Assembly: GCA_023248875.1 (NCBI GenBank)
Contig: JAHFDT010000002.1
Location: forward strand, 1 to 60,051
Direction: 5' to 3'
DNA: 60,051 nt
Origin: Myxococcales bacterium
GTDB taxonomy: Bacteria > Myxococcota_A > Polyangia > Palsa-1104 > SHYY01
Positions 2,799 to 9,052 of this stretch are shown piece by piece (position 1 is the stretch's first letter; each line of letters opens with the position of its first letter). The notes under the pieces are model-generated. The model did not search any database, was not told the DNA's origin, and saw only the letters and a program-made list of their open reading frames with translations. The translations under genes and the position numbers were made by a program.

Positions 2799-3626
2799 AT
2801 GCGCTTGGGCCTATTTGGAATGGTGCTACTGGCGCTCGGTTGTGTCCCGGCACGTGACTTGACACCGGCAGGTGTTTCGCCCGATGAGGGCGCGCTGCCG
2901 GACCAGCTCATACCCGCTGACCTCGGAAGCGGGAACGACGCCGCTGGGCATGACGAGGGTGGGTGGGTCTGGCATGACGATGGCGGCTGGGGACACGACG
3001 ATGGCGGCTGGAGTTGGCCCGATGGTGGCTGGAGTTGGCCCGATGGAAACTGGGCAAGCGACGGCGGCGGCTGGGCAAGCGACGGCGGCGGCTGGGCAAG
3101 CGACGGCGGCGGCTGGGCAAGCGACGGCGGCGGCTGGTACAGCGACGGGAACGGATACGGCGACGGGAGCGGGTTCGGCGACGGGAGCGGATTCGGCGAC
3201 GGGAACGGATACGGCGACGGGAGCGGGTTCGGCGACGGGAGCGGATTCGGCGATGGCGGCTGGTACTGGAACGGCGACGGCGGCGGGTGGTCCAGCGATG
3301 GGGGCAGCTGGTCTGGGGACGGAGGCGGAAGCGGGTCCGGCGATGCGGGGGGCGGTGGCGACGGTGCGGCAGCGCCCACCTGTAGCTTGAGCGTTACACC
3401 ACCGAGCGGTAACTTGAGTCAAATATTTGCCTTCCTCTGGAGTTCGACCAACGCGAACTCCTGCGCCTTTTGGATCGATAATGCTGCCCCAATGGCGGGT
3501 CCCTGTTCGGGGAGTGGCTCTCAACCTGGCAACCAGCTCGGTGTGGGGACCCACGTCGCTCACTTCACCGCCAGCGGTGCGGGTGGCAGCGCCTCCTGCA
3601 TGTTCACGTTGGTCGTCACCCAATAG
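2799..3626 (+). CDS. Secreted repeat lipoprotein (Trp/Gly/Asp/Ser repeats plus C-terminal Cys-containing beta-rich domain)
   Basis: Signal peptide with lipobox LALGC; repeats GGWSWPD x2, WASDGGG x4 and GNGYGDGSGFGDGSGFGD x2; AGGGGG SD upstream of the ATG. Confidence 0.8.
   Translation: MRLGLFGMVLLALGCVPARDLTPAGVSPDEGALPDQLIPADLGSGNDAAGHDEGGWVWHDDGGWGHDDGGWSWPDGGWSWPDGNWASDGGGWASDGGGWASDGGGWASDGGGWYSDGNGYGDGSGFGDGSGFGDGNGYGDGSGFGDGSGFGDGGWYWNGDGGGWSSDGGSWSGDGGGSGSGDAGGGGDGAAAPTCSLSVTPPSGNLSQIFAFLWSSTNANSCAFWIDNAAPMAGPCSGSGSQPGNQLGVGTHVAHFTASGAGGSASCMFTLVVTQ
2998..3253 (+). repeat. In-frame perfect tandem repeats inside the lipoprotein gene (21-bp unit x2, 21-bp unit x4 at 3051-3134, 54-bp unit x2 at 3147-3253)
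   Basis: tgggcaagcgacggcggcggc is repeated 4 times without mismatch; the 54-bp unit starting gggaacggatacggcgac recurs at 3147 and 3201. Confidence 0.9.
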
Positions 3627-3708
3627 ACCCTCGCTGCCCAATCTTGGGCAGCGCAGCCAGGACCACGACTCGACGGACCCACCAGGATTGGCTACCCTGC
3701 CAAACCTC

Positions 3709-4983
3709 GTGATTTCGCAACTCTCATCGACCCGCCTCTGGGGTACCGTCGCGCTGCTGATCGCAGCCGCCCTGCTGTGGCGGGCGCTGCCGGTCGACCT
3801 CGCCTTCACCCACGGCCATCCTTGGGATGCGATCATGGATTGGTACGGTGCACGCGCCTTCTGGTTCGGGAAAGATCCCTACACCAAGAGCTACTTGAAC
3901 GCGCTGGGCCACGATGTCTTCGGCCATCCTCCGACCACGCCCTTTTGGTATCTCTGGCTGGCACCGGTGCCCAGGGACTATCTGAAACCGATCATCGACT
4001 ACACGATGCTCACCGTTCTGATCGTCCAGTTCGTGCTGATCGCGCGTGAGCTGCGGTTCCCGGCGCCGCTGCCGACGGCGGCATTGCTCTTTGCGGCCAC
4101 GCTCTCGACCACCTGGATCCAGTACCACCTCAACGTCGCGCAAATCTCTGAATTCATCGCCTTTGCCTATCTCTTGGCCTGGCTCTTTCTACGCCGCGGT
4201 CGCGACGTCGCCGCCGGCATCACACTCGGCCTGGCCTGCACTCTCAAGCTGTTCCCCGGTCTGCTCGTGCTACTGCTCTTCGCCACGCGCCGCTATCGCG
4301 CCTTTTTCGCGGCCGGTGCTGCCTATGGTTCGATCGCAGTGCTCATGACCGCTCGCTTCGGAATCCATAGCTGGTTCGAGTTCCTGCGCGAAGAGAAGTA
4401 CCTCGCCGACGTCTGGACTGCGCACATCCAGAACGCCAGCCTGCACGGCATTGTTCTTCGGGCCTTTGTGCCGATCTGCATCGTGCGCAACCCGACCATT
4501 CCCGCTGCCACTCGCATCGCCACCGGAATCGCCGTGATGCTGGCGATCGCCTTTTTTCTCCTGTCGCGACGGGCTGCCCAGCGCGCCGAGACCATCGATC
4601 TCCCCTTCGCGCTCTTTGCGACGCTCTCCGCCTTTGCCAACCCCTACATGTTCGAGCATTACAATACGCTCTTGGTGTTGCCCCTCCTGCTCGCCAGCGT
4701 CGCATGGTGGCAGGCGGTGAAAAATGGCCTCGGCCGGATCGGGGCACTCTTCGGTGGCGCGACCGTGCTGGTGATCCTCTGGCTGCTCAGCATCGACGGG
4801 GTCCTCAAGGTCGGGTATCTCATCGCCCGAGGTCGCACCCGGCGGATCCACGTTCTCCTCCACCTCTACGAAGTGCTCAATTGGCTCCCGGCAGTGCTGA
4901 TCATGGCGCTCCTCGTGGGGTTGCTGGTTTGGTGGCACCGCCGAGGAGGCCTCAAGCTGGACGGCCTCGGGGCAAGATGTTAG
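3709..4983 (+). CDS. Integral-membrane GT-C type glycosyltransferase (GT87 / DUF2029-like, polyprenol-phosphate-sugar dependent)
   Basis: Multi-TM protein; N-terminal loop motif [22 protein letters not shown]...GHPPTTPF resembles the DxxxY...PY...YPP signature of PimE-like enzymes; start uncertain (GTG 3709 or TTG 3688), and the ORF-track start 3427 overlaps the upstream gene. Confidence 0.7.
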
Positions 4984-4993
4984 AGAGGCGCTG

Positions 4994-6921: not shown

Positions 6922-7564
6922 GCTCCACCTACCCCCGCGGGGAGCGCTCTCTCCCAACAACGCCGTCGACCCCAACAAGTACTACTACATGCCACTGGTG
7001 GGTCGGATGTTCCGCGCGCGCATCAACCTGGGGCTGCGACTGCTGCCGCGGCGGCCCGGTCGCCTGCTGGAAATCGGCTATGGCAGTGGGCTGCTCCTGC
7101 CCACGTTGACGGCGCTAGCCGACCGGGTAGACGGTGTCGATCTCGTCTCGCGTCCCACCGAGGTTCGAGCCGCGCTTGCCCGACTCGGCGTCTCGGTCGG
7201 TGAACTGATCCAGAGTGATGTTTGTGCGATGCCCTTTGCGGATGGCCGCTACGATGTCGTGGTTGCCTTTTCCATCTTCGAGCACTTAAAAGCGCTCGAG
7301 CTCGAGCGAGCCCTGGCGGAGACGCGCCGTGTGCTGCGCCCGGGCGGGATGCTACTCGTCGGTTGCCCAGCCGTGCACAAGGGGATGAACCTGGCCTTTG
7401 CTGCGATCGGCTTTCACGGGATCGACGAGCACCATTTCAGCTCGATCCACGACGTGTTGTCGGCCTGTCTGGGGCGGTTCACCGTGGAGCGCCAGGCCAC
7501 GTGGCCGCGCGGGATGCCGCTGGGACTTGCGCCCTATGGGGCGGTCCTGCTACGCAAGCAGTAA
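6914..7564 (+). CDS. Class I SAM-dependent methyltransferase
   Basis: 216 aa; motif [10 protein letters not shown] and acidic loop VDGVD; 8-nt overlap with gmd. Confidence 0.8.
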
Positions 7565-7579
7565 TCCGTCGAGGCGACC

Positions 7580-9052
7580 ATGGGTGAGGCGAATCAGCAA
7601 GCGGGCAGCGACTATTCGCAGCGGGAACAGGCAACGCGGGCGGCCCATGTGGCAGCGCTCGATGCGCTCGCGGCGCAGCGGAACCATTGGCGCAAAAAGA
7701 ATGGTTTCTATTACCGGTCGATCGAGGAGCTGGCTCGCTTTGTGATCCCGCCGGGGGCGCGCGTGCTCGAAATCGGCTGCGGCACCGGCGACCTTCTGGC
7801 CGCCCTCCAACCGGCGGAGGGCGTAGGCATCGATATCGCGCCGCGCATGATCGAGCGCGCGCGGGAGAAGCACCCCCATCTCCGCTTCATCGTCGATGAC
7901 GCGGAGCGACTCGAAGCCCCTGAACTCCACGGCAGGACCTTCGACTACATCGTGCTCAGCGATGTGGTCGGCCAGCTGATCGATGTCTGGGCGGCGTTTC
8001 GTGCGCTCCGACGGGTCGCCCATCCGCGTACGCGCATTCTGGTGACCTACTACAACTTCGTCTGGGAGCCGATTTTGCGCCTCGGCGAACGGCTCGGGCG
8101 GAAGATGCCCATCCGCCAGCAGAACTGGCTTGGAATGGCAGACCTCCGGAACTTGCTCGAGCTGTGCCATTTCGAGGTGATCCGCTCGGGCACGGCGACA
8201 CTGGTGCCCGTCGAGTTGCCCCTGGCGCGGCTCGTCAACCGCTACCTCGCGCGCGCGCCGCTCTTGCGCCACTTCGCATTGACGCAGTTCTTCGTCGCAC
8301 GGCTCGCCCACGGCGGAGGTCCCATTCCCGAGCGCGAATACTCCTGCTCGGTGGTCGTGCCCTGCAAGAACGAGTGCGGGAATATCGACGATATCGTCGC
8401 GCGCACGCCCCACATGGGACGCGCAACCGAGCTGGTGTTCGTCGATGGCAATTCGGACGATGGCACCGTAGAGGCGATCGAGAACCATCTCGACAAACCC
8501 TGGGTAAAGCTCGTCCCCCAGGGCGACGGGCGCGGCAAAGGCGATGCAGTACGCAAAGGCTTTGCGGCTGCGTCCAACGAGCTGCTGTTCATTTTGGACG
8601 CCGATCTCACCGTGCCGCCCGAAGATCTACCGAAATTCTACGCGGCCATCGCGGAGGGCAAGGGCGAGTTCATCAATGGCTCGCGGCTGGTCTATCCCAT
8701 GGAGGGCCAGGCGATGCGCTTCCTCAACCTCCTGGGAAACAAGTTTTTCGGCGCCGCTCTATCGGCGATCTTGGAGCAGCGCCTCAAGGATACGCTGTGC
8801 GGCACCAAAGTGCTGCTCAAGCGGGATTATCAACGGATCGCCAATGCCCGCAGCTTCTTTGGCGACTTCGACCCCTTTGGCGATTTCGACCTACTTTTTG
8901 GTGCCGCCAAACAGAATCTCAAGATCCTGGAGATGCCGATCCGCTATCGCGACCGCACCTATGGCGAGACCAAAATCAGCCGTTTCCGCCACGGCTGGCT
9001 GCTCGGCCAGATGACGCTGCACGCCTGGCGTAAGTTCCGCCAAGCGTATTAA
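7580..9052 (+). CDS. Fusion protein: N-terminal SAM methyltransferase plus C-terminal GT2 (Dpm1/GtrB-like polyprenol-phosphate glycosyltransferase)
   Basis: VLEIGCGTGDL motif in the N-terminal half; the C-terminal half has VVVPCKNE...VFVDGNSDDGT...LDADL and GETKISRFRHG, typical of Dpm1-like GT2 enzymes. Confidence 0.8.
   Translation: MGEANQQAGSDYSQREQATRAAHVAALDALAAQRNHWRKKNGFYYRSIEELARFVIPPGARVLEIGCGTGDLLAALQPAEGVGIDIAPRMIERAREKHPHLRFIVDDAERLEAPELHGRTFDYIVLSDVVGQLIDVWAAFRALRRVAHPRTRILVTYYNFVWEPILRLGERLGRKMPIRQQNWLGMADLRNLLELCHFEVIRSGTATLVPVELPLARLVNRYLARAPLLRHFALTQFFVARLAHGGGPIPEREYSCSVVVPCKNECGNIDDIVARTPHMGRATELVFVDGNSDDGTVEAIENHLDKPWVKLVPQGDGRGKGDAVRKGFAAASNELLFILDADLTVPPEDLPKFYAAIAEGKGEFINGSRLVYPMEGQAMRFLNLLGNKFFGAALSAILEQRLKDTLCGTKVLLKRDYQRIANARSFFGDFDPFGDFDLLFGAAKQNLKILEMPIRYRDRTYGETKISRFRHGWLLGQMTLHAWRKFRQAY

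Follow-up and report, generated by a model that had tools for sequence, protein, structure and literature searches.

Six genes that run in the same direction at positions 2799–9052 of the window, by which we mean the whole analyzed stretch of 60,051 nucleotides from a Myxococcales bacterium (assembly GCA_023248875.1, contig JAHFDT010000002.1), raise the question of which molecule is glycosylated by their products. The first gene encodes a Trp-rich predicted lipoprotein. The following five encode a GT-C membrane glycosyltransferase, two enzymes of GDP-sugar synthesis (fcl and gmd), a methyltransferase (MT), and an MT fused to a glycosyltransferase of family 2 (MT-GT2). An earlier note on this DNA had read all six as one short-gap operon, in which a GDP-sugar is converted into a polyprenyl-phosphate sugar by a Dpm1-like GT2 enzyme and then transferred outside the cytoplasm by the GT-C enzyme, with the lipoprotein as the dedicated acceptor. 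The window represents one of the 304 contigs of a metagenome-assembled genome (4.0 Mb, 88% complete), which the names of close homologues assign to Myxococcota/Polyangia, and the DNA of the window occurs in groundwater metagenome runs of one study. All six plus-strand open reading frames (ORFs) listed in that note were found in place. We consider it moderately probable that the last five genes constitute a three-component extracytoplasmic glycosylation operon, which adds (methyl)fucose to an envelope glycan, and that the lipoprotein is not a component of it.

The five enzyme genes (3709–9052)

The gene at 4994–5929 (plus strand, as are all six) encodes a short-chain dehydrogenase/reductase, which was called Fcl-like by profile searches and which solved-structure matches indicated to be a GDP-L-fucose synthase (Fcl/GMER-like). 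Its closest solved relatives are GDP-L-fucose synthases, and it was aligned to them over its full length with E-values of 5.6e-69 for 8du0 and 1.5e-62 for the E. coli enzyme (1bsv), in line with its earlier naming as fcl. The aligned segments G-T-I-C-A-Y-P, Y-x3-K, and S-H-V-I-P are retained in the protein, and the residues are kept in the columns that we presume to hold the catalytic Ser/Thr, Cys, Tyr-x3-Lys, and His of E. coli GMER. The next gene (5926–6921), whose ATG at 5926 overlaps the fcl stop codon by 4 nt, scored 533 bits against TIGR01472 (cut-off, 415 bits), which agrees with its reading as a GDP-mannose 4,6-dehydratase (Gmd). As a prediction from these matches, the conversion of GDP-mannose into GDP-L-fucose by Gmd and Fcl is well supported, and it would constitute the first step of the pathway.

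The 490-residue MT-GT2 fusion (7580–9052) consists of an N-terminal class I S-adenosylmethionine (SAM) MT (residues ~1–245) and a C-terminal GT2 domain (~255–490), which was assigned to the Dpm1/ArnC/GtrB type by profile, solved-sequence, and fold matches. Its best named families were archaeal AglJ and dolichyl-phosphate hexose transferase, and the match to AglJ (TIGR04182) gave an E-value of 3e-27 at 96 bits, below the 325-bit cut-off. Among solved sequences, the GT2 half was best matched by the dolichyl-phosphate mannose synthase (DPMS) of Pyrococcus furiosus (5mlz, E = 1.8e-13), on which its DAD and PPE motifs are aligned, followed by ArnC. An AlphaFold2 (AF2) model constructed from an alignment of 55 sequences from many phyla showed a predicted local distance difference test (pLDDT) value of 90.7. 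Foldseek returned ArnC, DPMS, and GtrB as the top matches of the GT2 half, all of which are polyprenyl-phosphate glycosyltransferases. Because the GT2 half is closest to these three enzymes, it is predicted to load the sugar onto polyprenyl phosphate at the inner membrane face, which would be the second step. The DxD motif (D340, D342) is invariant in the 55 sequences, and so is the motif F-G-D-F-D-P-F-G-D-F-D at residues ~426–441 of the GT2 half. No close counterpart of the latter acidic, aromatic motif was present in the one alignment inspected (DPMS 5mlz), and the motif may contribute to specificity for the sugar or the lipid. The C-terminus of the model forms a single long helix (residues 468–489).

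In the MT half of the fusion, motif I is normal, and the matches of this half are methyltransferases that act on small molecules and lipids. The gene directly upstream (6914–7564) encodes a stand-alone MT of 216 residues, a conserved partner of the MT-GT2 gene, for which the SAM methyltransferase call was upheld by a profile search that placed it in class I. Because of the MT fusion and the conserved linkage, both MTs are assumed to O-methylate the sugar in the cytoplasm, probably in its lipid-linked form; such methylation must precede export, since SAM is cytoplasmic. As the fourth step, the donor would be moved outward by a flippase encoded elsewhere. One GtrA-family match (PF04138) is located on another contig of the same genome (C258).

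The 424-residue GT-C enzyme is encoded at 3709–4983 with GTG 3709 as the start codon, for which TTG 3688 is also possible. It matched PF09594 with 62.3 bits (cut-off, 25; E = 7.5e-17), so that its assignment to family GT87 was obtained by a hidden Markov model (HMM) as the earlier note had anticipated. Approximately 94 representative clusters of this protein family were found at E ≤ 1e-30. The AF2 model (pLDDT 95.1) is almost all-helical, and its best Foldseek matches were two PimE structures (9dm5 and 9dm7; E ~1e-7, TM-score 0.66–0.75), with PIG-U, PIG-M, ALG3, and ArnT as other leading matches and no DPY19 entry among the 50 fold matches listed. A profile of 62 GT87 homologues gave PimE (9dm5_A) as its only strong profile match (E = 1.5e-13). 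In this alignment, K180 is positioned on K195 of PimE, the W-x-H motif on W319/H321, and Y318 on H322. In PimE, K195, W319, and H322 bind polyprenyl phosphate, and D58 is the catalytic base (PMC12041525). D40, K180, and H317 are invariant in the 62 homologues, and D44 is nearly so. D40 lies 33 residues before an H-P-P segment, a spacing akin to that of D58, the Asp at the tip of the first juxtamembrane helix, before the aligned Y-P-P of PimE, and the HMM alignment starts past the D40 segment. As the last step, the PimE-like GT87 enzyme would transfer (methyl)fucose to an envelope acceptor, most likely a glycan that is polymeric or anchored to a lipid, for example lipopolysaccharide (LPS), exopolysaccharide (EPS), or a glycolipid. 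A glycolipid or polysaccharide is favored because the GT-C enzyme is compact, its nearest relative acts on a glycolipid, and the module sits among polysaccharide genes elsewhere. Two further GT87 matches were observed in the same genome, on contigs C96 and C101.

The junctions between the five enzyme genes are, in order, +10, −4, −8, and +15 nt. This spacing is typical of one operon, and genes 3709–9052 are accordingly predicted to be one. The short-gap arrangement claimed for all six genes thus stands for the last five but not for the lipoprotein gene, which ends 82 nt before the GT-C start. Directly 3′ of the last stop codon of the operon, two 116-bp copies are arranged head-to-tail (9059–9290) before a gene for a four-helix bundle.

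Spread of the module and rival pathways

The linkage of these genes was examined in 41 genomes of the order and by a wider scan of one genome per GTDB species, which detected at least 567 MT-GT2 relatives; the counts below were taken from the best 80 loci. A GC3-based gene caller proved unreliable in these GC-rich loci and served solely to choose candidate ORFs for confirmation by tblastn or Pfam. The lipid-donor synthase and the GT-C enzyme are encoded together both here and in genus g16, a member of another family, three genomes of which carry the same five enzyme genes adjacent to one another in the order fcl-gmd-MTGT2-MT-GT87. Since GT87 is again adjacent in a different order, this arrangement gives independent support for its functional link to the other four genes. 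The best 80 MT-GT2 loci (51–77% identity) are distributed over more than 10 phyla, among them Myxococcota, Acidobacteriota, Gemmatimonadota, Elusimicrobiota, Nitrospirota, Methylomirabilota, Latescibacterota, Desulfobacterota, and several candidate phyla. In 37 of these 80 loci, a fcl gene (55–73% identity) lies no more than 2.5 kb from MT-GT2; gmd was located within 4 kb in 25, and one or the other was present within 10 kb in 50. The small MT follows MT-GT2 directly in 45 loci. Twenty neighbors with multiple transmembrane (TM) segments were scanned, which identified seven PMT_2 proteins above the cut-off, two weak PMT_2 matches, and one DUF2142 protein; a DUF2079 protein and, in Polyangia, a 754-residue PMT_2 protein were found at other MT-GT2 loci. 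A protein of at least 330 residues with at least 7 TM segments lies within 7 kb in 62 of the 80 loci, a number that, lacking a random-window control, is not used as evidence; only neighbors with a Pfam assignment are counted. In other phyla, the module is located among DegT, GT4, RmlD, and GFO-hexapeptide genes. Together with the sequence and fold matches, these comparisons support the order of events proposed in the earlier note, namely from GDP-sugar to polyprenyl-phosphate sugar by the Dpm1-like GT2 and then to extracytoplasmic transfer by the GT-C enzyme.

Several points weigh against this pathway. We infer every step after GDP-fucose. No flippase of the GtrA, SMR, or MATE type is encoded among the six genes, and a hydropathy scan detected no TM segment in MT-GT2, unlike GtrB, ArnC, and archaeal DPMS. 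TM helices are likewise missing from human DPM1 and from the Ppm1 catalytic domain of mycobacteria. Not every module has a GT87 partner: a GT87 orthologue was detected in 9 of the 41 genomes versus 19 for MT-GT2, and a GT87 homologue in only one of the 80 loci. In genus g4, a 38–45% identical GT87 homologue shares a contig with the module at a distance of 36–40 kb, and in two g4 genomes this homologue stands beside a different, larger GT2 protein. The window's own family, which is the nearest, possesses the MT and MT-GT2 pair without fcl, gmd, and GT87. The Fcl protein scored 295.5 bits against NF047922, below the 500-bit equivalog cut-off of NCBIfam, so that a related GDP-6-deoxyhexose is a possible product. 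In the literature, we found no paper that describes polyprenyl, undecaprenyl, or dolichyl phosphate fucose, nothing relevant on GT87/DUF2029 outside actinobacteria, and no publication on the MT-GT2 fusion.

Some of these points also fit a cytoplasmic role of MT-GT2. WbdD and WsaE are MT-containing chain terminators, and on their model the fusion would be a Leloir-type chain-capper, which adds and methylates a terminal fucose on an acceptor linked to undecaprenyl diphosphate or on another cytoplasmic acceptor; the GT87 enzyme would then function independently with another donor, for example polyprenyl-phosphate mannose. A capping enzyme of this kind is consistent with the lack of a predicted TM segment, with the lack of a GT87 gene at most MT-GT2 loci, and with the ordinary polysaccharide genes that surround the module in other phyla. 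It is nevertheless unlikely, because the best sequence and fold matches of the GT2 half are all polyprenyl-phosphate glycosyltransferases, and membrane proteins of the GT-C clan recur beside MT-GT2 in unrelated phyla. The gap of only 10 nt between GT87 and fcl, together with their renewed linkage in another order in another family, also argues against an independent GT87 enzyme.

A second possibility retains the three-component architecture and replaces the sugar: instead of L-fucose, the transferred sugar would be mannose or a different GDP-6-deoxyhexose that an Fcl-like reductase/epimerase produces. DPMS, the closest solved relative of the GT2 half, uses GDP-mannose, and fcl and gmd are missing from some MT-GT2 loci, both of which agree with such a donor, as does the score of Fcl, 295 bits where the equivalog cut-off is 500. 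By contrast, all of the solved proteins closest to Fcl are GDP-L-fucose synthases, with which its presumed catalytic residues are aligned, and a fcl gene of 55–73% identity is positioned directly upstream of MT-GT2 in the 37 loci across phyla. Another sugar is somewhat less likely even than the capping role, and the three-component addition of (methyl)fucose remains our preferred reading of the five genes.

Other modules were also observed during these comparisons. In one Polyangia family (L048:11082-14477; also L047, L060-L064, L069, L070, and L073), fcl-gmd-MTGT2-MT is followed by a further MT and a 754-residue GT-C protein of the PMT_2 type, and a GT2 gene and a 518-residue polytopic protein without a Pfam family are located divergently upstream. 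The next gene in L048 (and, judged by eye, in L047) encodes a secreted protein that combines a PG_binding_1 domain with extended stretches rich in Pro, Thr, and Ala; this protein is a more plausible glycoprotein candidate than the lipoprotein of the window. The genome of the window contains an MT and PMT_2 pair at contig C122:2821-5841, with 55% and 47% identity to their Polyangia counterparts, beside its own Dpm1-like GT2. Because C122 keeps MT and PMT_2 with a Dpm1-like GT2, this genome is considered to have at least two separate lipid-donor/GT-C modules. At the start of the window contig (24–1043), an oxidoreductase of the GFO/IDH/MocA family resembles UDP-GlcNAc 3-dehydrogenase, and a 39% identical counterpart is located near MT-GT2 in one relative (G003). 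Oxidoreductases of the GFO family were found near MT-GT2 in 7 loci of other phyla, and one scanned example was fused to a hexapeptide acyltransferase domain.

The Trp-rich lipoprotein (2799–3626)

The gene at 2799–3626 encodes an orphan protein of 275 residues, which is predicted to be a bacterial lipoprotein. Its N-terminus consists of one hydrophobic segment followed by L-A-L-G-C, in which Cys15 fits the PROSITE-type lipobox rule when read by eye. The signal peptide is followed by a low-complexity region of ~150 residues (40% G, 16% D, 11% S, and 11% W) and a C-terminal domain of 80 residues with four Cys. The Trp-rich repeats described in the earlier note were confirmed by Tandem Repeats Finder and by residue composition. 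The in-frame tandem DNA repeats (2999–3253) comprise 21-bp units (4.7 copies, 96% matches) and 18/54-bp units, the latter including a perfect 54-bp duplication, and they encode W-A-S-D-G-G-G and G-Y/F-G-D-G-S repeats. The copy number of these repeats is taken from one assembly only and may be an assembly estimate; the public contigs of the source run break at 2949–3224, none of those listed spans the repeats, and the remaining samples of that study contain fragments. The whole protein contains 18 Trp, and the low-complexity region alone contains 16 Trp and 18 Ser/Thr. W-x-W occurs four times and W-x6-W ten times, and a regular-expression search over the 275 residues detected no WxxW or WxxC sequon. 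Minus-strand ORFs at 2753–3379 and 2826–3836 were considered as alternative coding frames and rejected; the plus frame was preferred because of its promoter-like site, G-rich ribosome-binding stretch, signal peptide, and lipobox.

Several features distinguish this gene from the five enzyme genes. A sigma-70-like promoter site, TTCCCA-18 nt-TATAAT (2738–2767, plus strand), lies in an AT-rich spacer ahead of the gene and agrees with the consensus at 10 of 12 positions, which is a consensus match only. Right after the stop codon, a GC-rich hairpin without a U-tract (3633–3652, plus strand) is positioned; the 131-nt stretch around it (3600–3730) gave a folding energy of −46 kcal/mol (z = −4.05 versus shuffles), and the hairpin is possibly a terminator or attenuator. 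With a promoter-like site in front of it and a hairpin between it and the GT-C gene, the lipoprotein gene looks like a separate transcription unit. The GC content at its three codon positions is 0.64/0.65/0.74, and that of the five enzyme genes is approximately 0.61–0.72, 0.41–0.46, and 0.76–0.80. Upstream of the operon lies a cupin-pdxB pair that is also conserved in three relatives, where no counterpart of the lipoprotein accompanies it. The other neighbor of the pair differs between the two flanks examined: one carries an OPT-like transporter gene, whereas a MetH-like gene occupies the second (both named by eye).

Homologues of the lipoprotein were sought at several levels. Pfam and NCBIfam searches assigned it to no family. 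Among 5.8 billion proteins, in a search limited to lengths of 151–482 residues, no meaningful homologue was detected; three borderline matches (E ~1e-3) share only the G-Y/F-G-D-G-S low-complexity stretch. The C-terminal domain alone gave no match at E ≤ 0.1 against the same proteins, and within the genome itself no paralogue of either end of the protein was detected. Gly/Asp/Ser-rich coding stretches are common in that genome (for example, C175:17341-17676, C90:17092-17478, and C228:5991-6626), and the Trp-bearing version occurs only in the window. No counterpart was found at more than 100 related loci, including those beside GT87 orthologues and MT-GT2 genes, nor any Trp-rich G/D/S protein in the relatives' loci examined; tblastn of 80 further loci, the best 80 for MT-GT2, detected no lipoprotein-like protein in any of them. 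The GT87 orthologue of the closest relative (~47–51% identity) has other polytopic membrane proteins on its flanks and no lipoprotein. The earlier note had tied its acceptor proposal to co-conservation of W-repeat lipoproteins with the GT-C/GT2 pair in related genomes, and no such co-conservation was found. The lipoprotein appears to be a lineage-specific, fast-evolving neighbor with its own expression signals and no conserved component of the module.

A dedicated acceptor that is restricted to this lineage would still be conceivable, in which the exported, disordered G/D/S/W region is glycosylated by the GT87 enzyme through O-linkage to Ser or C-linkage to Trp. The exported region offers 18 Ser/Thr and 16 Trp for such a modification, and the gene adjoins the enzyme genes in the same direction, although this adjacency is the sole tie between the orphan lipoprotein and the enzymes. 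We regard the proposal as very improbable, because searches with the whole protein and with its C-terminal domain detected no homologue, the genome encodes no paralogue, no similar Trp-rich protein occurs at the relatives' loci examined, and the GT87 orthologue of the closest relative has other membrane proteins as its neighbors. The promoter-like site and the hairpin ahead of the GT-C gene and the missing WxxW/C sequon also argue against it, as does the GT-C enzyme itself, which is compact and almost all-helical with a glycolipid transferase as its best fold match and without DPY19 among the 50 matches listed. Its specific form, in which the PimE-like GT-C enzyme decorates the G/D/S/W region with (methyl)fucose, is slightly less probable again, and the C-glycosidic, Trp-linked variant, which if true would be the first bacterial Trp C-glycosylation, is hardly credible. 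The lipoprotein is probably outside the enzyme system, and the alternative named in the earlier note, that an envelope glycan is decorated and the lipoprotein is unrelated, is the better reading.

Relation to known systems

The proposed operon shares its main elements with several glycosylation systems. GtrA/GtrB/GtrC of Shigella and Salmonella, ArnC/ArnT, CsbB/YfhO, and a Citrobacter system similarly combine a GT2-type polyprenyl-phosphate sugar synthase with an extracytoplasmic GT-C enzyme. Such three-component systems have been described together with cytoplasmic tailoring of the lipid-linked donor: in the undecaprenyl-phosphate ribofuranose system of Citrobacter, the lipid-linked donor is epimerized in the cytoplasm before export (PMC11127046). 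This tailoring gives a precedent for the methylation of a lipid-linked donor before flipping. In contrast to these systems, the donor of the present operon would be derived from GDP-L-fucose, not from a UDP-hexose, 4-amino-4-deoxy-L-arabinose (L-Ara4N), or phosphoribosyl pyrophosphate (PRPP). The synthase is furthermore fused to an MT and has no predicted TM anchor, a second MT is linked to it, and the operon contains no flippase gene.

In methylthioxylose capping, a Dpm1-like GT2 forms an unusual, methyl-bearing lipid-linked sugar for subsequent transfer to an envelope glycan on the outer side of the membrane. The present operon is alike in that a Dpm1-like GT2 would make the lipid-linked donor of a methyl-bearing sugar. 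It differs in the sugar and its precursor and in the MT fusion, which is absent from the methylthioxylose system, and the latter is known only from actinobacteria. For M. tuberculosis, mtxS (Rv0539) has been supported as the maker of the lipid donor for this capping (PMC12088412).

The GT-C enzyme most closely resembles that of the mycobacterial Ppm1/PimE step in the synthesis of phosphatidylinositol mannosides (PIM), since it belongs to Pfam GT87, has PimE as its best fold match, and conserves the equivalents of the phosphate-binding Lys and of W-x-H (PMC12041525). The invariant D40 has about the spacing expected of the catalytic D58 and may correspond to it. The two proteins are, on the other hand, only 18–19% identical. 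PimE-type enzymes use polyprenyl-phosphate mannose as the donor and PIM or lipomannan as the acceptor, and the donor genes linked to the present enzyme suggest a sugar of the fucose type, not mannose. To our knowledge, no PIM pathway is known in a Gram-negative myxobacterial host.

Protein glycosylation offers two further comparisons. Eukaryotic Trp C-mannosylation by DPY19 (GT98) likewise depends on a GT-C enzyme, a polyprenyl-phosphate sugar donor, and Trp-containing acceptors, and its sequon is WxxW/C (PMC10154233). The lipoprotein of the window lacks this sequon, the GT-C enzyme is PimE-like and not DPY19-like, and the enzymes are not co-conserved with this putative acceptor. In the streptococcal GtrB/PgtC2 and Pgf systems, Ser/Thr-rich disordered regions of exported proteins, lipoproteins included, are glycosylated (PMC12041528), which indicates that a pair of lipid-donor and GT-C enzymes is able to modify exported disordered regions. 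The streptococcal acceptor regions are Ser/Thr-rich and belong to conserved proteins, whereas the region in the window is G/D/W-rich and belongs to an orphan protein.

For the window itself, the outcome is mostly a correction, as the Trp-rich lipoprotein is placed outside the conserved system. The fusion enzyme proposed as its synthase is both very widespread and highly conserved, with identities above 50% across phyla, and no functional study of it was found. If the proposed chemistry is true, polyprenyl-phosphate L-fucose that is O-methylated on its carrier would represent a new class of lipid-linked sugar donor, and the fusion enzyme would provide a testable handle on methylated deoxy-sugars at the surfaces of many uncultured bacteria.

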